Assembly: GCA_963676835.2 (NCBI GenBank)
Contig: CAXXFF010000003.1
Location: 128,001-192,000, forward strand
Source: Marispirochaeta sp.
GTDB lineage: Bacteria; Spirochaetota; Spirochaetia; JC444; Marispirochaetaceae
Length of the DNA stretch: 64,000 bases
Direction: 5' to 3'
The stretch's first letter is position 1. The number at the start of each line of letters is the position of its first letter. The translations under genes and the position numbers were made by a program. The notes under the pieces were generated by a model. It did not search any database, had not been told where the DNA came from, and saw nothing but the letters and a program-made list of their open reading frames with translations. Below, piece by piece: positions 38,744-47,501 of the stretch.

Positions 38744-38827
38744 GCGGCGGTGGTGAAATTGGTAGACACGCTAGCTTGAGGGGCTAGTGGCCGTTAGGCC
38801 GTGCTGGTTCAAGTCCAGTTCGCCGCA
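38744..38827 (+). tRNA. tRNA-Leu (GAG), integration target
   Basis: GCGGCGG acceptor, CTAGC-TTGAGGG-GCTAG anticodon arm, variable arm GGCCGTTAGGCC, T-loop GTTCAAGTC. Confidence 0.95.
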
Positions 38828-38830
38828 CTA
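38775..38830 (+). repeat. attL core (3' part of tRNA-Leu)
   Basis: CTTGAGGGGCTAGTGGCCGTTAGGCCGTGCTGGTTCAAGTCCAGTTCGCCGCACTA, identical to 46963-47018. Confidence 0.95.
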
Positions 38831-38939
38831 CCAAACTCCTTACACTGTAAGGATTTATAAAAGTGACGGAAAATTGTGCTAATGGGGTACGCTCCTTGAT
38901 GGTGGCCGAAAGGTGGCTGAAATATCAAGGAGGTAGCCC

Positions 38940-39038
38940 ATGGCTACAAAAACACTTTTCCATTTTCCTACGATTGATATGCTGGAGAGCTTCGGGGGGG
39001 GTCCTAAGACTACCTATGTCCTCGGAGGTGAAGCATGA
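38940..39038 (+). CDS. 32-aa leader ORF (not in ORF track), coupled to the next gene
   Basis: AAGGAGG SD 6 nt before ATG. Translates MATKTLFHFPTIDMLESFGGGPKTTYVLGGEA*. Its stop overlaps the next start (ATGA). Confidence 0.55.
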   Translation: MATKTLFHFPTIDMLESFGGGPKTTYVLGGEA

Positions 39039-39316
39039 ATTTTCAAGATCAAATCGAAAAAGCAAACAACACTCTACTCGAAAACACGAGCAGTGCCGTT
39101 CTTCTTATCGGTAAGCTAAAAGTGATAGCCGATTGGCTTGATCGAGCTTCTCAAGATTACCCCAGACCAATGGAACATTTGGACGTGCATTTATCAGGCG
39201 CATCTGAGCTGATTAAAGGGGTTATTACTGATATCGATGCATTGTGGGATCGAAACGACTTTCAAATTCACATTGATAAATCCGACTTTCCCAAAGTGCT
39301 GGAGGTAGTAAAATGA
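39035..39316 (+). CDS. Hypothetical protein (93 aa) coupled to integrase
   Basis: GGAGG SD. Its stop overlaps the integrase start (ATGA). Confidence 0.7.
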   Translation: MNFQDQIEKANNTLLENTSSAVLLIGKLKVIADWLDRASQDYPRPMEHLDVHLSGASELIKGVITDIDALWDRNDFQIHIDKSDFPKVLEVVK

Positions 39317-40527
39317 CCTCCATAAACCTTGATACGGATTTTCACATCCTTAAAAAATGGCGATACAAAGACGGAAAGAGGACCAATAAATATGTTTACT
39401 ATGCGGCCTCTACAAATCCTGATTGGAACCATGAAAATCCCAAAGCTTGCCCCAAATATCTGATAATGAAAAGTACAGGGCAAACCAGTAAAACGGCAGC
39501 AAGGAAGGTTGCATTACACTGGATGCAAACGGGTGAGCTTGTGCCAGACAAACCGAAAGAAGCGAAGGACAGCATTTCATACCTTTCAACGGTTTTTGAA
39601 CCCGAGAGTACATATGTCAGGCGCCGTAGAAGCTTGGGAAAGTCAATGTCTTTGACCTACATCAATATCAGTAAAAGCTGGATTGATCGCTATTTTGTCG
39701 CCTATTGCAAGGAACGCGGGATCACCCGCATGGGTGAGATTACACGAAAATTCGTCGACGACTGGCAGCTATATCTTTATGAAAGCAAAGTTATAGGTCC
39801 GGTAACTGTGAACAAAGTACTCCAAGCGGTAAAGGTTGCGTTTGGACAGGCTGTAAGAGATGAATTGATACCATCTAACCCAGCCAGCTACATAGAGCCC
39901 GTAGAGGCAAGGGAACGGGAAAGAGGAATCTTTTCCCTGGAAGAGTATGAAAAGCTATTCGCAGAGCCTTGGGACGATCTGGAAGTATATTCAGCTTGTT
40001 ATCTGAGCGCCACGACTGCTATGCGTTTAGGGGAAGTGAGAGGGTTGTTGGTAAAGAACCTTGATCTTAAGAAAGGGGTGGTTCACATCAAAACAAGCTG
40101 GCAAGACAACGAAGGGATAAAGGATCCTAAGTGGAAAAGCTTCAGCCATGAAGATGGCCTTCCACTTGCCCCTGGAGTCATCAAGGTCTTATCAGAGATT
40201 GTACAGCATCATCGCTGGGGAGCAGATCCTGGACGCTTTGTATTCTGGGATATAGACTCACCTGACCGACCGATAGGAAAAGAAAAACTCACTAAGGGGC
40301 TCTATGCTGCAATGAAGCGGGTAGGAATAGACAGGAAAGCAAAGAACCTCACCTTTCACAGTCTACGACATACCATGATTACCACCCTGAAAGATGATCC
40401 GCGCCTACTTCGCTACTTCGCAAGGCATAAACAGGAACGGATTACAGAGCGATATATTCACCTTACCGAAGAAGACACAAATCGCTTTGAAAGCACTATT
40501 TCTGGCCGTTTTAGCTTCGCCAGCTAG
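39313..40527 (+). CDS. int: Tyrosine recombinase/integrase
   Basis: TAMRLGE (R), DPK (K), FHSLRHT (HxxR), ARH...TERYIH (H, Y). N-terminal arm-binding-like and core-binding domains. Confidence 0.93.
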   Translation: MTSINLDTDFHILKKWRYKDGKRTNKYVYYAASTNPDWNHENPKACPKYLIMKSTGQTSKTAARKVALHWMQTGELVPDKPKEAKDSISYLSTVFEPESTYVRRRRSLGKSMSLTYINISKSWIDRYFVAYCKERGITRMGEITRKFVDDWQLYLYESKVIGPVTVNKVLQAVKVAFGQAVRDELIPSNPASYIEPVEARERERGIFSLEEYEKLFAEPWDDLEVYSACYLSATTAMRLGEVRGLLVKNLDLKKGVVHIKTSWQDNEGIKDPKWKSFSHEDGLPLAPGVIKVLSEIVQHHRWGADPGRFVFWDIDSPDRPIGKEKLTKGLYAAMKRVGIDRKAKNLTFHSLRHTMITTLKDDPRLLRYFARHKQERITERYIHLTEEDTNRFESTISGRFSFAS

Positions 40528-40598
40528 TTATTTACTACTTAAAACCATACCCACGGGCCATTTACACATTGTAGGTGGCCCAACTGGTGGCTGGGCAT

Positions 40599-40649
40599 AA
40601 AAAAACCCCGACTACCTTAAGGGTGGATGATGAAACCCAGTAGCCGAGG
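40599..40649 (-). terminator. Terminator/structured 3' end of the minus-strand structural operon
   Basis: Minus strand CCUCGGCUAC...GUAGUCGGGG (with G-U pairs), inner GGGU/ACCC stem, then U7. Confidence 0.6.
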
Positions 40650-40681
40650 AAGGCAACGCCTTTTTCCTTACCGGAGCCAGC

Positions 40682-41005
40682 TTACTTTTCTATTCTCCGT
40701 TCATACGCTCCACGGATCGCCTCTGTCAGAGCGATTGATCCGCGAGTCTCGATGAACTCCTGAGGTTTGCCGTCGATACGGTCATAGATATATTTGATTG
40801 CAGTTATATCTCCCGAGAGGGCAAGATCCCACAATTTAGCAGCCAAAGCTTGATTACGTGACATCATTTTCCGTTCACCGGTTTTAGGGTCAATGTACTC
40901 AACGTCTCGCTTCTTGGCATGTGATCCCAGAATGTCAGAAAGGCCCTTTCCCTTTCGGGGGCGGCCTTTTCGGTTTATGTTCTCGGGATGTTCTATAAAT
41001 CCCAT
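40682..41005 (-). CDS. Putative terminase small subunit (DUF5681-like)
   Basis: MGFIEHPENINRKGRPRKG...ALSGDITAIKYIYDRIDGKP resembles the NxxGRP small proteins that precede TerL in phages. Confidence 0.6.
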   Translation of the reverse strand: MGFIEHPENINRKGRPRKGKGLSDILGSHAKKRDVEYIDPKTGERKMMSRNQALAAKLWDLALSGDITAIKYIYDRIDGKPQEFIETRGSIALTEAIRGAYERRIEK

Positions 41006-41129
41006 TGTTCCCCCCTTGTAAAACAAGGGCCCACCCCGAAGGGTGGGCAAAGTTATTAGTGCCGGTAAATCAGTATAAAAACCCGGCACTAAACATCCGG
41101 GTGAATAACTTCCGGATGTCATAAACAAT

Positions 41130-42269
41130 TTAGCTGGCGGCTGTCATCAGCCGGGAGAAAGCGGACCGCTTTGCGTATTCCAGCGCAAGGCGCTGCACGA
41201 TAACAATCCGGGTCTGGTACTTCGCAGCCAGGGTGTACGGGTCCATGAGCATTCCTGCATTCTTGCGAGCTCCGTATAGTATCCAACGGAAATTCCCGAA
41301 CCCTACAAAGGCGGTATCAGCACCGGATGTGCTGGGCGCCTGATTACATTCCACAATGGGGTATTTTCCGTGTATCGAGGTCCTGTTCTGACCATAGGGG
41401 TTCCAGAGATAGTTGCCTGCGGCATCGGTCTCTTTCTGAAGATTTACCGCCACATCGGGATGCATGACAAAGAGTCCATTTTCCCGTGCATAGGTCGGTA
41501 CATCGTGGTACAGGTCAATCAGATGCTCAACACTGATACTGCTGAATGCCGTGGATCCGGAACCGAACACAGTACTGTAGCTGATTGTCGGGGTAAAGAT
41601 TCCAGAGAATCCGCCATAAGTATCCGAGCCGTCACCATTCAGAATGGCGTTGTCGATTGCCTGACCTGCTTCCTCTGCGAACTGCTCAATCAAGAGGCCT
41701 GCAATGTCGGTTGCTGAGTCTTCAAGCAGCTCATTTGAGCAGATGGTGTAACAGTCAAGCCGGCGGGTATTCAGGGTAGCTTCCGAGAAGGTTGCATCTG
41801 TCTGGTCGATGTCATCCCCTTCCTGGTGCCAGGAAACTGAAATGCGGTCATCGAGGATAGGCACCTTCATGCTATCCCGATTCATCCGTATTTTGGTAAG
41901 GTAGGGAATCATTTCTGATGCCCCTTCAACGAATTTCATAAGCATGGTGTGGAACTCTGTTGGAACCAGATAACCTCCTGAAGCGTCGGTCCCTTCGACC
42001 ATGTTCGCCTTGGTATGCCACTGCTTAAGCTGGTAGTTTGCCTCGGGGCTGCCCTTCTGAGCCTTGTACATGGTCTGAAAATAGGTTGCCAGCTCCACGG
42101 TCTTCGCGACTTCTTCGGGATCCTCTGCATTGAAATTCTTATTCCTTACAATCCCCTGGAGCTCCAAGCCCCTTTCAGCGATAGACTCCCGCAGTTTTAC
42201 GCGGTATTCATTCAGGCTCAATTCGCCGTTTTTAAACTGTTCTGTAAAATCTGTTGCTTTATGGTCCAT
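41130..42269 (-). CDS. HK97-fold major capsid protein
   Basis: N-terminal coiled-coil delta domain, then GTDASGGYLVPTEF, SNELLEDSATDI, AILNGDG, FVMHP, GNYLW, FGNF. Confidence 0.92.
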   Translation of the reverse strand: MDHKATDFTEQFKNGELSLNEYRVKLRESIAERGLELQGIVRNKNFNAEDPEEVAKTVELATYFQTMYKAQKGSPEANYQLKQWHTKANMVEGTDASGGYLVPTEFHTMLMKFVEGASEMIPYLTKIRMNRDSMKVPILDDRISVSWHQEGDDIDQTDATFSEATLNTRRLDCYTICSNELLEDSATDIAGLLIEQFAEEAGQAIDNAILNGDGSDTYGGFSGIFTPTISYSTVFGSGSTAFSSISVEHLIDLYHDVPTYARENGLFVMHPDVAVNLQKETDAAGNYLWNPYGQNRTSIHGKYPIVECNQAPSTSGADTAFVGFGNFRWILYGARKNAGMLMDPYTLAAKYQTRIVIVQRLALEYAKRSAFSRLMTAAS

Positions 42270-42279
42270 AAATATCCTC

Positions 42280-42957
42280 TCAATCGTTTACTATTAAACA
42301 TCCGGGGGTTACGCGATTTTCCATACGTATCCGCCGTTCTAAAACATCGAGCTCCTTGAGTTCCTTCTCAAGCTCCTCAATCTCCTCGTAAAGCGCTTCC
42401 CTTTGTTTTGCTTCCCGGATAGCACGCTCCACGGCCTTCATGTATTCATCCGGATCGCTATCACCAAGTAGCAGCCCTTTAGCATGAACTACCGGCATAA
42501 GAAAATCTTTTGCGTCACGGATAACACGAGCCCCTTCATTTGCGGGGATTGAAACACAGGAAACTTCCAGTAAATCAGCTTCCGTCCATACCCTGGTTCC
42601 ATTCTGCTTTGTCCACTTCTTGGGCTGAAAGCCTACCGAAAAGCTGGTAAGGAAATCTTCTTCATACAGCTTTTCAAGCTCTTTCCCCAGGTCCGTGTCC
42701 GCAAACACAATGTCCAGATTCAATGATTTGGAAGTGATTTCACCTCCTACGGCCTTACCTACCGGGGGTATATTCTGGTCATGCCCCCAGAGAACAACAG
42801 GGTTATTCTTGAGATACCGCGGGAGTGATTTTGTCCAGGCGGTGGGAAGTATCACTTCACCATCCCGGTCAACGTCTGAAGTTGATGCAACGATCCGGAA
42901 AACCTTCTTGCTTCCCTTCTCGATTACGTCATCGACTCCAGCCTTAAACCTAATCAT
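42280..42957 (-). CDS. HK97-family prohead maturation protease (S78)
   Basis: ASTSDVDRDGE, NPVVLWGHD, SFSVGF, LLEVSCVSIPAN. ATG behind GAGGAGG. Confidence 0.92.
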   Translation of the reverse strand: MIRFKAGVDDVIEKGSKKVFRIVASTSDVDRDGEVILPTAWTKSLPRYLKNNPVVLWGHDQNIPPVGKAVGGEITSKSLNLDIVFADTDLGKELEKLYEEDFLTSFSVGFQPKKWTKQNGTRVWTEADLLEVSCVSIPANEGARVIRDAKDFLMPVVHAKGLLLGDSDPDEYMKAVERAIREAKQREALYEEIEELEKELKELDVLERRIRMENRVTPGCLIVND

Positions 42958-43185
42958 TTGTCCTCCTCGCGAATCGTGCCCTTTACGCCTTCCTGCCTGA
43001 TTTACATCCCGATTTACGCCATTACTGACTGAGCGGTTAACGACTGAGCAGACAACCCAGACTGATGACCCTTTTCGCATAATACTATACACACGTATAG
43101 TTATAATATAACAATTAGCTATTTACGCTAATAGATCCCTATGTACTGTAACGATTTAACCGCTACAGGTGGCCACCAAGGTGGC

Positions 43186-45108
43186 TCAAGTATTAACAAC
43201 CGACTTACTGTCAATTAACAACTCACCGTTTTTTGTCATTTTGAAAAGCGCTTTTCCCACTTCATTGCCATTCAAATCAATATGGAAATGGTAAGTTCCG
43301 CCTGTTGCCGTTTTCGCCTGGTCTTCGTTCTGGATGGAAACGCGCTCCCCGGAGGCAACCCCGATCATGTATGAATCATCCCGGTAGCCTTCCGGGACTG
43401 TGAAGTCACCGCCAGATTTATAACTGGGAACCGGGGTGCTCTGAATGGCGGCAACCTGTGCAGCACCTATCCCTGCAGCGGCTACCGACAAACCTATGCC
43501 AGCAAACCCGCCAGGGTCGGCAAGGAAGCCGATAATGGCCGCAGCTGTATCAACTGTCGCCTGAAGCGTTCCCAGGGCCTTGGCGCGCTCTGACTGCTTT
43601 CTGGCGATCTCTTTTTTCTTGTTTTCAAGGCGTTCCTCTGCAGCTTCCCTTTCGGCTGTCCCTTCCTTGGTCGCTTCAACTTCTGCCTTCAGGCGGTTAA
43701 GCTCTTCCTGCTCTGCATTTGAGGTTATGGTGTTCAGGGATCCGAAAAAGCTTCCCGCCATGCCTGACAGAGTGCTGTAGTAAAATTCCATTTCAGAATG
43801 CCGTTCAGCTAGTATCCGCGCTTCTTCAGCGGCGACAGCTTCGGCAGCGGATATCTGCTCAAGCCTCCACTGTTCAATCCAGTCAGATTTCTGGGACCAA
43901 AAATTCATCTCTGTATCAGCCAGCGATTGAGTGGCATTCTTCATTTGGACAAGCTTTTCGTTTAGCTCCTCGAGTACCGCTCGCACTTTTGGGCCGTCTT
44001 CAAATGATTCAAATAATTTTATTTCCTGCTCAAGTGCTTTTTGAGCTCCCTCTGCCGTACGCGCATAGGCCTCTTCCAGGGCATCAAGATTAGCCTGTCG
44101 CTGGGCCTCTTTGGCAGCTTTGTCCGCTTCCTGAGCCGCAAGTACTTCAGCTGCAGCTCGTTGCTGTGCTGATGCAACAGCAGCATAATCATCCGAAATA
44201 GCAAGCTGTGCCTGGCGGCTTCTCATTTCGGCAAGACGCTGCTCTTCTTCGCGGAGCTGTCTGTTGACGTTTATCCCCCGCATCTTCTGGGTATTAAGCT
44301 CGGCAATGCGCATTACCTGCCGCTCAATTGCAGTTGTGAGTGTTGTTGTATCATCAGCTTCGCCTGTAAGGATCTTCTGCAGGGCCATTTCACCAGCGAG
44401 AAGGTTGTTTACCTCGGTAAGCATTTCGGTAAAAGCTCTCCGGAGAGGAGTCATACCCCGGGCTACATACTGGCCAATAGCCTCCTGGGTATCCCCGATG
44501 GTGTTCTGGTACTGCAGGTAAGCTCCGGAGGCAGTATTTGCTTCCTCCTGGGCTACCAGGAAAGCGGCAGCAAGCTGACGCTCTGCAATAGCAGCTTTCT
44601 CTGTTTCGGTGGCTGCATTTTTTACAGCAGGCATGTACCGGTTCATCATGTCGTAATTGCCCTGCTGGGCATTTACCGTTGCTTTTATCGCTGCTTGAAG
44701 ATCGACGCCGAAGGCCTTTGACAGCCCTATGGCGTCCTTGGTTGCCTGCTTGGCGGCTTCAGCCGAGAGTCCGGCAGAAACAGCATACTGCTGCAGTTGG
44801 ATTGAAGCTTCATCGCCGACTGTGGTTATCCCCTGCAGTTCTGAGGCAAAATCCTGCATAGCTCCAGAGACTGCTGCCGAATACTTTCCAGTAGCCCGGA
44901 GTGATGCATTCAAAAGGGCAACACTTTTCTCCTGAACAAAGAAGGCTTGTTCAGCTTTCGCCAGCTGCTTAGTGACTGAGACAAGCGCAGCGCCTGCGGC
45001 GGCGATACCGGTAGTCATTAAGGCTACGCTTTTCATGTAGTCTTTGACGCTTTTCTGTGATTTCTTTGTCTCTGTTAAAATATCAACTTGAACTGTATCT
45101 TTTGCCAT
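43186..45108 (-). CDS. Tail tape-measure-like protein (640 aa)
   Basis: Ala-rich helical protein with QEKSVALLNASLRATG...ASELQGITTVGDE N-terminal pattern, long coiled coils, a Gly/Ala hydrophobic segment and a C-terminal YKSGG...DS...SGERV motif typical of TMPs. Confidence 0.78.
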   Translation of the reverse strand: MAKDTVQVDILTETKKSQKSVKDYMKSVALMTTGIAAAGAALVSVTKQLAKAEQAFFVQEKSVALLNASLRATGKYSAAVSGAMQDFASELQGITTVGDEASIQLQQYAVSAGLSAEAAKQATKDAIGLSKAFGVDLQAAIKATVNAQQGNYDMMNRYMPAVKNAATETEKAAIAERQLAAAFLVAQEEANTASGAYLQYQNTIGDTQEAIGQYVARGMTPLRRAFTEMLTEVNNLLAGEMALQKILTGEADDTTTLTTAIERQVMRIAELNTQKMRGINVNRQLREEEQRLAEMRSRQAQLAISDDYAAVASAQQRAAAEVLAAQEADKAAKEAQRQANLDALEEAYARTAEGAQKALEQEIKLFESFEDGPKVRAVLEELNEKLVQMKNATQSLADTEMNFWSQKSDWIEQWRLEQISAAEAVAAEEARILAERHSEMEFYYSTLSGMAGSFFGSLNTITSNAEQEELNRLKAEVEATKEGTAEREAAEERLENKKKEIARKQSERAKALGTLQATVDTAAAIIGFLADPGGFAGIGLSVAAAGIGAAQVAAIQSTPVPSYKSGGDFTVPEGYRDDSYMIGVASGERVSIQNEDQAKTATGGTYHFHIDLNGNEVGKALFKMTKNGELLIDSKSVVNT

Positions 45109-45136
45109 AATTAGGCTCCTACTCTAGTGATGGTCA

Positions 45137-45613
45137 CTACCCTGCAAGTACTTGCGTGCGATTGGTGGCCGTGGTGGTGGCTATTTTCCGATGAAATGCC
45201 AATTTTTCCCTGTAATACACCCCCCAGGTCTCTTTGTTGGAATCGTCCGGAGCTGCATTGAATGATAAATGTTCATAATAGGGAAATTCACAGGAGGGGC
45301 AGCAATCTTCAAATCCTTGACGATACTGGAAGATTTTTCCGCATGCTGGACATTTCACCTGAGTGCCAGGGTGCTGATACCGGACTACGTTTTTCTGTTT
45401 GAAAAAGATTTTCTTTTCTTGAGCAGCCTCAAAAACTTCTTTAACAGAAACGACCTTGTATCGATTGCTATGGTGTTCAATCAGGGAGTCTTTCAAGCTA
45501 TCACGCTCAGAGTCGGTGATAGTAATTATGCGGTCCCGAATTTCTGCCATCGAAAGGCGAATAGTATTCGGGTAATATTCTTTAAGATATTCTAGAAATT
45601 CCTTGCTCGTCAT
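45137..45613 (-). CDS. Hypothetical protein with C4 zinc finger; possible helicase loader/inhibitor
   Basis: CPACG...CCPSC. The N-terminal MTSKEFLEYLKEYYPN resembles G39P-type loaders, and the gene lies directly after the initiator. Confidence 0.45.
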   Translation of the reverse strand: MTSKEFLEYLKEYYPNTIRLSMAEIRDRIITITDSERDSLKDSLIEHHSNRYKVVSVKEVFEAAQEKKIFFKQKNVVRYQHPGTQVKCPACGKIFQYRQGFEDCCPSCEFPYYEHLSFNAAPDDSNKETWGVYYREKLAFHRKIATTTATNRTQVLAG

Positions 45614-46094
45614 CGCTCCCCTCCCCAGGTGATCGACTATTGTTCATAAGATCATCAATTGAAAAATCTTCTCCGCCCCATTGTTGAGGGGTACTGTTAT
45701 TGGTACCTGTTCCCTGGTAATGTTCGGGCGTATCCATTACGCTCCCAGGGTGACACTCTTTCGCCCCGGTAGTGTCATCGTTACGCAAGGGGGGTGTCAT
45801 CATTACGCGCCCCGGTATGTAATAATCATTTGACCGGTTATATTGTTTACCAGTTTTCCCGGTAGCTAATCGTTGTCTAACCTTAATTTCACCCTTTTCT
45901 TCAAGACTTCTTATGCAGCGCTGCACAGTTCGTCTGCTCAGCTTGGTAATCTTTACAAGCGATTCTATTCCAGGAAAACACTCTCCTTGCTTATTGGCGT
46001 AGCGTAATAATCCGATCAAAACGAGAGTTTCACTCGAGCTCAAAGCCGCATTTTCCATCAGTGCATTCGGCACTACGAAATACCTACCTGACAC
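45582..46094 (-). CDS. Phage-type replication initiator with N-terminal winged HTH (HTH_36-like)
   Basis: GTG start behind GGAG. FVVPNAL...LLRYANKQGECFPGIESL...LSRRTVQRCIRSLEEKGEI. Iterons lie inside the gene. Confidence 0.75.
   Translation of the reverse strand: MSGRYFVVPNALMENAALSSSETLVLIGLLRYANKQGECFPGIESLVKITKLSRRTVQRCIRSLEEKGEIKVRQRLATGKTGKQYNRSNDYYIPGRVMMTPPLRNDDTTGAKECHPGSVMDTPEHYQGTGTNNSTPQQWGGEDFSIDDLMNNSRSPGEGSDDEQGISRIS
45728..45808. repeat. Four 15-bp iterons with 22-bp period (putative ori)
   Basis: GCGTATCCATTACGC (45728), GTGACACTCTTTCGC (45750), GTGTCATCGTTACGC (45772), GTGTCATCATTACGC (45794). Confidence 0.7.
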
Positions 46095-46095
46095 A

Positions 46096-46287
46096 TCAAA
46101 CTTTCTCCACGCGGCCACGGCCCAAGAGCCACTCTTCAAGCTCCTGAACATCAAATACAACCCGTCTACCCCATTTGTAAAATGGAACGGTTTTCGCGCT
46201 GGTCGCATTCCAGAAAAATTGTTTACTGAGGCCGTAACGAGTTACAGCCTCAGAGACACTGATCAATTCTTTTCCCTGGATCTGCAT
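46096..46287 (-). CDS. Excisionase/AlpA-like HTH DNA-binding protein
   Basis: LISVSEAVTRYGLSKQFF...VPFYKWGRRVVFDVQELEEWL (HTH_17 pattern). Confidence 0.8.
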   Translation of the reverse strand: MQIQGKELISVSEAVTRYGLSKQFFWNATSAKTVPFYKWGRRVVFDVQELEEWLLGRGRVEKV

Positions 46288-46290
46288 GGC

Positions 46291-46728
46291 TTAATCCTTC
46301 CTCACCAGCTTCCTTGGGTCCATTAAGCCTTCTGGCAGATTCTGGTCCATTGTTTTAACTAATTCATAATCAAAACCAAAATAATCACAGGTAGACATAA
46401 GTTCTTGCTTGTAAGTCCCCTCTATTTCGGTGGAAATCTTTTCCCCAAAAGACGGATCTTCGTCACGTTTTAGCTCCCAAAGCAGTACAGCTCTGTCAGT
46501 GCTGAAATATCGGTAATCAGTGTCTTTCCCTCCTGGGTTATATGGAGCCATCAATCGACGCCATGTCATAATTGCTGCTGTCTGAATTATCTGTTTCCAG
46601 GTTTCTTTTGTGATCATATCCCTAATGAACTGAGCTTCAGAAAGATCATTATCTGAAGCAAGCTTATTGAGCCATTCACACTGACGTTCTGTAAGGTAGA
46701 AATTTTTCAGCTTGTCTTTCTTTTCCAT
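46291..46728 (-). CDS. Regulator with N-terminal ribbon-helix-helix-like domain
   Basis: KNFYLTERQCEWLNKLASDNDLSEAQFIRDMI. ATG behind GAGGGGAG. Confidence 0.55.
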   Translation of the reverse strand: MEKKDKLKNFYLTERQCEWLNKLASDNDLSEAQFIRDMITKETWKQIIQTAAIMTWRRLMAPYNPGGKDTDYRYFSTDRAVLLWELKRDEDPSFGEKISTEIEGTYKQELMSTCDYFGFDYELVKTMDQNLPEGLMDPRKLVRKD

Positions 46729-46747
46729 TGCACTCCCCTCTTTTAAT

Positions 46748-46776
46748 AAGATACCGCTCAATTCTTTATATGTCAA
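46748..46776 (-). promoter_or_regulatory. Sigma70 promoter driving the satellite's minus-strand operon
   Basis: Minus strand TTGACA-17 nt-TATCTT, overlapped by ATTCTTTAT repeats. Confidence 0.7.
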
Positions 46777-46884
46777 TCTTATTCTTTATGTTTGATGTTT
46801 TATAAAGATTTTGTATTGGTGGCCAAAAGGTGGCCGGGGTGGTGGCTGTTTTTTATTAGGTAAAAAAGAGTAAACATTAACAAT

Positions 46885-46913
46885 TTGCGTAATTCTTTGT
46901 TATGTGGTATATT
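46885..46913 (+). promoter_or_regulatory. Outward-facing extended -10 promoter next to attR
   Basis: TTGCGT-17 nt-TATATT with TGn extension. Confidence 0.55.
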
Positions 46914-46962
46914 ATAAAAACTAATACAGCCAACTAAAGGCTATTAAAGGCAGCATTATTAC

Positions 46963-47018
46963 CTTGAGGGGCTAGTGGCCGTTAGGCCGTGCTGGTTCAA
47001 GTCCAGTTCGCCGCACTA
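46963..47018 (+). repeat. attR core (duplicated 3' part of tRNA-Leu)
   Basis: 56-bp exact copy of 38775-38830. Confidence 0.95.
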
Positions 47019-47020
47019 TA

Positions 47021-47059
47021 AAAAGACCATTCGACTTTTGTCGGATGGTCTTTTTTTTT
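47021..47059 (+). terminator. Original tRNA-Leu terminator, displaced behind attR
   Basis: GACCATTCGAC-tttt-GTCGGATGGTC followed by T9. Confidence 0.88.
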
Positions 47060-47392
47060 GGCGCGAACTGGACTTGAATAGAGTGAGCGCCGACCGATCA
47101 GGGAGGAAAAGCAGGCATGGATGCCTGCGGCAGCGAACGGCAGGGGCCCGGAAGGAGGAAACAGGATGTTTCCGACTGGAGGGCAAGTCCAGCCCTCAGA
47201 CTAAGATCAACTTCCAAACCCAGATGGTCTTTTTTTTCTGCGCGAACTGGACTTGAAACGGAGTTTCGGCGCGACTGAATAAGGAGCGCAAATCGACAGG
47301 ACGTCGATTTAGAAACGCAGGCAGCCTGCAGGGAGGAGACACGATGTCGACGACCGGAAGGCAAGGCCAGCCCCCAGAGTAAGATCAACTTC
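47044..47392 (+). repeat. Two ~179-bp degenerate structured repeats
   Basis: Shared GATGGTCTTTTTTT, GCGCGAACTGGACTTGAA (47061/47240) and TAAGATCAACTTC (47202/47380), with internal hairpins. Confidence 0.75.
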
Positions 47393-47501
47393 AAGAAACA
47401 GAGTCTCTTTATTTATTATCTTAAACCTGCAATAATTATTTGTCTCAGGCACATGTTCCTGAAACCGACCGGCTTATGTGCACGAAATCGGGAGTAGAAA
47501 T

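Follow-up and report, generated by a model that had tools for sequence, protein, structure and literature searches.

The 64,000-nucleotide window analysed here, from the genome of a Marispirochaeta species (assembly GCA_963676835.2, contig CAXXFF010000003.1, positions 128,001 to 192,000), contains an 8,188-bp island integrated at a tRNA-Leu(GAG) gene, which encodes an HK97-family major capsid protein (MCP), a prohead protease and, judging from gene context, a terminase small subunit (TerS) and a tail tape-measure protein (TMP), together with genes for integration, regulation and replication. The island is most likely a phage satellite, and probably a functional one; with a probability of about 0.7, it would represent an intact, helper-dependent satellite resembling the phage-inducible chromosomal islands (PICIs), to which a tail tape-measure gene has been added. 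Its anatomy, the identities of its genes, the absence of portal, terminase large subunit (TerL) and further tail genes, and its membership of a family of small elements with swappable modules are established here. The satellite reading is favoured because the att repeats are exact, the open reading frames (ORFs) and catalytic motifs are intact and the corresponding site is empty in another genome (G004); because the gene order is rearranged, the donors are mosaic and the sister elements at the same site are small; because a second, unrelated capsid-plus-TMP island resides in the same genome; because non-synonymous divergence remains below synonymous divergence (pN < pS) in 12 of 12 comparisons; and because the TMP of the PLE satellites (PMC12987554) and the EPIP particles (PMC12822802) offer precedents. 

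Boundaries and Gene Content of the Element

The tRNA-Leu(GAG) gene, located by ARAGORN at 38744-38828 on the + strand, is the integration target and is intact at attL. An exact pair of 56-bp repeats, corresponding to the 3' part of the tRNA, occurs at 38775-38830 and 46963-47018 with a spacing of 8188 bp, in agreement with the original prediction of an 8,188-bp element bounded by perfect att repeats. Ten uninterrupted ORFs occupy 7147 of the 8132 bases between the repeats, so that the tight packing described there is confirmed as well. Since the biggest non-coding gaps inside the element measure 125-234 bp, no space is left for a portal, TerL or tail tube gene, and the ten ORFs gave no convincing portal, TerL, connector, tail tube, holin or lysin family in Pfam, PHROG or NCBIfam; the family scans and the gaps both agree with the earlier statement that these genes are missing and have no room. 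The + strand carries a 93-aa ORF followed by the tyrosine integrase gene, and the - strand carries, from attR inwards, the genes for a ribbon-helix-helix (RHH)-like protein, an excisionase, a helix-turn-helix (HTH) replication initiator, a zinc-ribbon protein, the 640-aa TMP, the protease, the MCP and the DUF5681 protein. The features are as follows, G003 and G005 being two genomes of the same genus.

38775..38830, + strand: attL core, 56 bp, identical to 46963-47018
39035..39316, + strand: 93-aa ORF of unassigned function, coupled to int, ribosome-binding site present
39313..40527, + strand: tyrosine integrase, 404 aa (PF00589, phrog_1)
40682..41005, - strand: terminase small subunit (DUF5681) by synteny, 107 aa (PF18932)
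41130..42269, - strand: HK97-family MCP, 379 aa (TIGR01554, E 6e-57; PF05065; phrog_10)
42280..42957, - strand: HK97-type prohead protease, 225 aa (PF04586, phrog_80)
43186..45108, - strand: tail tape-measure protein by context, 640 aa, with relatives at the siphophage TMP position
45137..45613, - strand: zinc-ribbon protein (CxxC/CxxC), 158 aa, backbone marker, 38-44% identical to its counterparts in G003 and G005
45582..46094, - strand: HTH replication initiator (HTH_36, phrog_270)
46096..46287, - strand: excisionase or AlpA-like HTH protein, 63 aa (HTH_17, phrog_66), 75-81% identical to the sisters
46291..46728, - strand: putative RHH regulator (weak Pfam matches, E 0.05-0.08)
46963..47018, + strand: attR core, 56 bp, identical to 38775-38830

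The Pfam, PHROG and NCBIfam searches proposed at the outset recovered the families of the integrase, excisionase, replication initiator, MCP and protease, and DUF5681 for TerS. The predicted gene list stands for int, xis, rep, TMP, protease, MCP and TerS and lacked the 93-aa ORF preceding int, which has no match in Pfam, PHROG, NCBIfam or PADLOC. Two of the labels are softer: 'loader-like', for the zinc-ribbon protein, goes back only to Atlas matches below 0.9, a weak lead towards a helicase loader, and 'RHH' only to the Pfam matches listed above, the putative RHH gene being 33% identical to the G005 gene in the same position. The catalytic residues R238, H349, R352, H372 and Y381 of the integrase, located as motifs in the sequence, are all present. 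The replication initiator probably starts at the GTG codon at 46094, coupled to xis, within an open frame that extends to 46208.

Predicted promoters (9 versus 10.4) and terminators (9 versus 9.7) occur at chance level and neither were used. A GC-rich hairpin on the - strand (41029-41048), between the MCP and TerS genes, could reduce TerS expression. The stretch next to attR on its outer side (47044-47414) contains the 3' end of the tRNA once more, inverted, together with a two-copy repeat of 178-bp spacing; this repeat belongs to the host and lies outside the element, since a similar sequence follows the tRNA in G004.

Head, Packaging and Tape-Measure Genes

In the MCP, about 90 N-terminal residues precede the Pfam match and form a probable delta domain. 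Its best sequence match in the PDB is the capsid protein of the gene transfer agent RcGTA, and its nearest relatives, 35-49% identical, sit on contigs shorter than 6.4 kb; the 80 IMG/VR loci retrieved with an alignment of MCP relatives are only 24-38% alike and mostly resemble full phages. The predicted MCP structure was poor (pLDDT 46.5) and was left unused. The protease, without any sequence match in the PDB, carries the putative catalytic residues H59 and S107, again as motifs in the sequence, which we take to have the catalytic roles.

The assignment of the DUF5681 protein as TerS comes from synteny. Relatives of the gene were found at 50 loci, 43 of which have a large ORF at most 1 kb downstream, and this ORF is a TerL in 41 of the 43; the other two are a methyltransferase and an ORF without any match, and 7 of the 50 loci are devoid of such an ORF. 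The gene context thus points to a terminase small subunit, and relatives of both this gene and the zinc-ribbon gene sit in records of Spirochaetales, Spirochaetaceae or Treponema, which points to a spirochaete host.

Similarly, the 640-aa protein is identified as a tape measure by its context. It has no match in Pfam or to a named TMP family in PHROG, where a single marginal Rz-like match (E 0.007) was obtained. Its best relative (45-48% identity), encoded in the IMG/VR record G738, itself matches TMP PHROGs and follows, in this order, TerS, TerL, portal, scaffold, MCP, major tail and two chaperone-sized genes; relatives of the 640-aa ORF hold the same TMP slot in Spirochaetia prophages. Locus scans with single proteins were empty for this TMP, for the TMP of the second island and for the MCP, and the GenBank phage collection gave no match for TMP or TerS.

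Rearranged Order and Mixed Donors

In the element the genes are ordered TMP > protease > MCP > TerS, whereas the phage order is TerS > TerL > portal > protease > MCP > connectors > tube > TMP. Among 484 partly redundant loci, labelled with purpose-built profiles, 60 bear labels for both MCP and TMP, and in 50 of these the MCP precedes the TMP, as in phages, with at least 2.5 kb between them. The remaining 10 short-gap rows correspond to this element (5 rows), the second island, locus L246 and three near-identical Clostridia-type islands.

Moreover, the head and tail genes best match separate phage lineages. Compared with the phage record G737 (34.7 kb, 94% complete), the identity amounts to 62% for the gene in TerS position, 42% for the protease and 32% for the MCP, and to only 29% for the TMP, the first 260 residues of which are 64% identical to the TMP of phage G738, whose capsid belongs to another family. 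The TMP being mosaic, it was compared region by region with BLAST against 16 TMPs in place of a tree.

In the 12 element comparisons, pS ranges from 0.61 to 0.95, near or at saturation, and pN from 0.19 to 0.48. These values point to purifying selection over the long term; with dS saturated, the test does not reach the most recent branch.

Sister Elements and a Second Island

Counting this genome, three of the seven genomes of the order carry the zinc-ribbon marker of the backbone. At the same tRNA, G003 harbours a 7,994-bp sister with an integrase 62-65%, an excisionase 81%, a replication initiator 47% and a zinc-ribbon protein 44% identical to those of the element. There, the TMP-protease-MCP-TerS block is replaced by two small genes, a scaffold-like gene, a phrog_267 MCP and a PDC-S20/KAP-type NTPase, and neither TMP, portal nor TerL was found. 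G005 shows the same backbone with a scaffold-like gene and an MCP, as far as the contig end. In G004 the site is empty, the tRNA being directly joined to sequence matching the DNA beyond attR; in G001 the tRNA is shortly followed by host genes, and in G002 the place is taken by a different element. Two genomes of the genus thus share the backbone and the tRNA with another head module, so that, on sequence comparison, the element belongs to a family with swappable virion modules. The same gene order at tRNA-Leu, which the original prediction suggested looking for, was recovered for the backbone in G003 and G005 and not for the exact gene set. Full-length prophages, named there as relatives that would speak against a satellite, did not turn up: the same-genus sisters are equally small and without portal and TerL.

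The NTPase gene of G003, just after int (L523:11585-12979), is low in GC and encodes 464 aa with a PADLOC PDC-S20 match (E 1e-107), a candidate anti-phage cargo. G002 also contains a small integrase/excisionase element (L568:15126-20000, L569:1-4406) with a TerL-like gene and no recognised capsid or portal nearby.

A second island occurs in the same genome at a tRNA-Val (C1:136389-147727; L014:389-11727), delimited by a 48-bp repeat and measuring 11,291 bp. It encodes an integrase, an excisionase, an AAA_25 helicase, a 688-aa TMP (phrog_3336), an MCP of the lambda-E type and a ClpP protease; scaffold-like and decoration-like genes are assigned by position, and no portal or TerL match was obtained. 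The N-terminal region of its TMP best matches another prophage (68%) and not the TMP of the tRNA-Leu element, and related islands in G002 and G003 retain the ClpP gene and the 151-aa gene of this island and show no TMP or capsid. Two backbones have apparently acquired a TMP-plus-capsid block from different phages. Locus L246 (int, helicase, MCP and TMP on an 8.9-kb contig, with undefined ends) may be a third spirochaete case. This genome accordingly provides two independent capsid-plus-TMP islands, and the genus provides relatives with the same backbone and no TMP, a natural with/without comparison.

Proposed Cycle and Alternative Readings

All stages of the cycle, and likewise the small size of the head, the length of the tail and the identity of the helper, are proposed by analogy with PICIs, PLEs and EPIPs. 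Upon infection by a compatible siphophage, the integrase and excisionase would excise the element from tRNA-Leu and the replication initiator would replicate it. The MCP and protease would build a small HK97-type head around the helper portal, and TerS would direct the helper TerL onto satellite DNA. The TMP of the element would replace that of the helper in an otherwise helper-made, chimeric tail of about 70-100 nm for 640 aa, since 10-15 nm per 95 aa are expected in PMC12987554, and the helper would finally lyse the cell. Owing to the equally small sisters, the original proposal, in which the satellite contributes capsid, protease, TerS and TMP and takes portal, TerL and tail from a helper, remains the most likely one; no helper prophage was found in this genome.

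Several points weigh against this scheme. The element is known from its genes alone, its excision, replication and particles being deduced by analogy. An HK97-like helper prophage, expected in the same genome (G000; 97% complete, 4 contigs), was found neither with profiles nor by tblastn: there was no match to PF04860, phrog_9, 21 or 64 and only a marginal one to phrog_2 (E 7e-4), none of 30 reference phage proteins gave a tblastn match, and purpose-built TerL, portal, tube, chaperone and TerS profiles retrieved only the genes of both islands and the host ClpP. Five genomes of the genus yielded two TerL matches, in G002 and G004, with no full prophage at either and no recognisable portal, capsid or tail genes flanking them. 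In the absence of a resident helper, an incoming siphophage is the probable partner, G737, G740 and G738 being candidate helper types only. With the capsid of the best candidate helper, the MCP shares only about 32% identity, which leaves the uptake of a foreign portal without an explanation; unlike PLEs, the element has no tail chaperone or hub. The structural comparison proposed for TerS, made with Foldseek on a model of pLDDT 69, retrieved nothing at E <= 0.001, no second copy of the exact gene set was found in locus searches, and with saturated dS the selection test is compatible with a recent relaxation. A single public sequencing run contains the element; being probably its source, this run adds no independent support.

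Of the competing explanations, the one that survives best, though unlikely, keeps the element as a satellite and makes the MCP and/or the TMP interference or size-switch factors, the MCP co-assembling with the helper capsid and the TMP poisoning helper tails. The Ccm proteins of SaPIs and the 'capsid morphogenesis' proteins of PICIs co-assemble with the helper capsid protein. Such a role would suit both the lack of an encoded portal or connectors and the SatelliteFinder view of the PICI capsid gene (PMC10085698), and the G003 sister, which manages without a TMP, marks this gene as accessory. However, the element retains, next to its full-length MCP, a protease dedicated to maturation and equipped with the catalytic motifs, and the sisters bear scaffold and MCP pairs of another family. 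Moreover, the TMP is full length, close to the size of a phage TMP (626 aa in G738), and the TMPs of PLEs are structural (PMC12987554).

A decayed prophage, or a dead-end recombinant having lost its portal, TerL and tail genes, is very unlikely. Relatives of every virion gene occur in full phages, the exact gene set was found once only and the genome revealed no helper, as such an origin would have it; but the order is rearranged, the sources are different phage lineages, the att sites are intact, no pseudogenes or gene scars occur, the same-site sisters are equally small and an independent second island obeys the same logic. Finally, a small HK97-fold virus living autonomously without a portal, or a domesticated, encapsulin- or GTA-like particle, is hardly tenable despite the portal-less HK97-fold genomes of 5-11.6 kb reported in PMC13669383 and the RcGTA capsid protein as best PDB match of the MCP. 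TerS and TMP are meaningful only in combination with TerL, portal and tail, none of the ORFs matched an encapsulin family, and the element is att-bounded and patchy in the genus, which speaks against domestication.

Comparison with Known Satellites

With respect to the known families, the element works like a PICI or an EPIP yet fails one defining feature of each named family. According to the PICI definition (PMC10085698), these satellites contain an integrase, a regulator, a primase-replicase, a capsid gene and TerS, with a protease in some and tail genes forbidden, and SatelliteFinder views the capsid gene as a modifier of hijacked capsids. The element resembles PICIs with a capsid gene (SatelliteFinder type A/B, including the phiRv1/phiRv2-like ones) by its integrase, candidate AlpA/Xis-like regulator, replication gene, capsid and TerS, by its size (median ~9.5 kb in PICIs), by a protease, which is occasional in PICIs, and by the lack of portal and TerL (PMC10085698). 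It is an att-bounded chromosomal island with an integrase, its capsid gene (TIGR01554) is followed by TerS (DUF5681), and the candidate for the alpA/merR/stl-type regulator is the HTH_17/phrog_66 excisionase-regulator, on Pfam and PHROG only. It differs in having only the HTH_36 initiator and the zinc-ribbon protein instead of a primase-replicase, in an int gene pointing towards the other genes when integrated, and in a full-length TMP, a tail gene of the class that the model forbids.

EPIPs of Mycolicibacterium aichiense (2025 preprint, PMC12822802) form particles with small heads and altered tails, and the EPIP record OR387110 (Alyssa1) contains TerS, MCP, TMP, adaptor and stopper genes and no annotated portal or TerL. 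EPIPs, of about 11 kb, likewise combine an integrase, an HTH protein, TerS and MCP with a TMP that comes close in size (~651 aa), with no annotated portal, TerL, tail tube or lysis gene; the element shows this association of TerS, MCP and TMP without portal, TerL, tail tube or holin. In contrast, EPIPs possess a serine integrase, an adaptor, a stopper, no annotated protease and the order MCP > TMP, whereas the element has a tRNA-targeted tyrosine integrase, a protease, no connector match and the order TMP > protease > MCP > TerS. In addition, EPIPs were isolated as particles and induce a resident prophage, and the spirochaete element is known from genes, with no resident helper found. The likeness to EPIPs is one of description; the phage collection that includes OR387110 gave no match to the TMP or TerS of the element.

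The putative satellites that Barth, Dunham & Seed described from E. coli in 2023 (PMC10055350), which carry MCP, decoration protein, TMP and hub genes, are similarly integrated at tRNAs by a tyrosine integrase and combine MCP and TMP with most tail genes missing. They differ by a size of about 13 kb, by their decoration protein and baseplate hub and by the lack of terminase and protease, whereas the element has TerS and protease and no hub. The PLE TMP enters virions and is required for transduction, the only proven chimeric tail (PMC12987554). The element shares a satellite-encoded TMP with PLEs, which use the helper capsid protein, encode the tail assembly chaperone TAC (some also a hub) and parasitise a contractile-tailed phage; instead of the PLE association of tmp with TAC, helper capsid use and Vibrio/ICP1, it shows no TAC match, its own MCP and a spirochaete host. 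Like the capsid-forming cf-PICIs, it has its own MCP, protease and TerS, and it lacks the TerL, portal and head-tail adaptor/connector which cf-PICIs also encode (PMC10085698); for some cf-PICIs, a putative tmp is indicated as well (legend to Extended Data Fig. 10 of PMC12987554). HK97-fold 'twilight zone' genomes of 5-11.6 kb without portal or tail genes have been described (PMC13669383), and further background is available in PMC10654092 and PMC12409344.

The claim that the element fits no known satellite therefore cannot be upheld: the PICI core has capsid and TerS, EPIPs have TerS, MCP and TMP, and E. coli islands with MCP and TMP have been known since 2023. The general plan is not new in kind, as EPIPs, E. 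coli islands and PLE tape measures precede it. What is new is the spirochaete host, the protease accompanying a lone tape measure without connectors or chaperone, the swappable virion modules on one backbone, the GGTGGC repeat at the ends and module borders, and the assignment that DUF5681 gains, through synteny, as a terminase small subunit. No description of the exact gene set or of spirochaete satellites was found in the literature, in a search that covered few subscription papers. In this respect, the element extends such satellites to spirochaetes, at a time when satellite tape measures have first been proven in PLEs (Nature 2026); it also raises the structural question of how a satellite capsid takes up a helper portal and a lone TMP uses helper chaperones.

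The GGTGGC Repeat

The pattern GGTGGCC-N4/5-GGTGGCT has five matches in the 64-kb window, all on the + strand and all inside the element, versus none in 100 shuffles; a slightly looser pattern has 6 matches genome-wide, 5 of them inside the element. The copies are distributed as follows.

38901..38918, + strand: GGTGGCC-N4-GGTGGCT pair, 70 bp inside attL; same position in the G003 sister
40574..40592, + strand: internal pair, 47 bp past the int stop; in G003, a single copy 47 bp past int
43168..43186, + strand: internal pair abutting the TMP stop codon, at the border between TMP and head genes
45164..45182, + strand: internal pair at the 3' end of the zinc-ribbon gene, at the border between replication genes and TMP; in G003, a single copy at the same codons
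46818..46847, + strand: three GGTGGC(C/T) copies, ~120 bp inside attR; G003 and G005 have pairs in the corresponding position

G005 shows pairs at both ends, as far as assembled, and G003 a further single copy after its MCP. The swapped module lies between both conserved internal copies.

Integrases of this type recognise arm-type sites in the att regions, and the end copies are probable arm-type sites. For the internal copies, regulator binding would be the plainer role and cassette exchange the bolder one; a Chi-like or pac-site function of the repeat is a further conceivable reading. In the latter case, GGTGGC(C/T) would bracket integration, head, tape-measure and replication genes, and the integrase or excisionase of the element would swap the hijacking modules there as cassettes, which we regard as quite unlikely. 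The confinement of the window matches to the element and the retention of two internal positions in the sister, despite saturated synonymous sites, speak in its favour. Against it, arm sites alone are, to our knowledge, not known as crossover points, one of the copies is at the same time part of a coding sequence, any motif conserved in the backbone would border a variable region, and the sites may be plain regulator binding sites. If true, it would explain an HK97 head with TerS and TMP here versus a scaffold, another capsid and a defence gene in the sister, and would give satellites a built-in means to switch helpers.

Other Small Elements

A third integrase region of this genome, at a tRNA-Thr (C1 about 80000-103787; L012, L015), contains ORFs that resemble, on visual inspection, DNA methylases and ParB, and it shows no virion genes. 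Among 26 Spirochaetia regions, seven (L468, L470, L472-L475, L478) are cf-PICI-like, several of them adjoining tRNAs; labels from purpose-built profiles give them int and/or xis, TerL, portal, protease and MCP and no tail label. Locus L255 (G219:C70, 9,599 bp), probably circular with its 54-bp terminal repeat, carries TMP, a chaperone-sized gene, primase, ParA and integrase; without a recognised capsid, it is a candidate capsid-less TMP satellite. Clostridia-type islands occur at L199:1472-14923, L092 and L172; L199 adjoins a tmRNA and combines primase, a sigma-like gene, MCP, a head-closure gene and TMP with a serine recombinase, which gives an EPIP-like arrangement in Firmicutes. Two further Spirochaetia loci associate int, helicase, portal and MCP at a tRNA-Val (L480:3513-11081), and MCP, a 238-aa gene, TerS and portal without TerL (L482:6788-12540).

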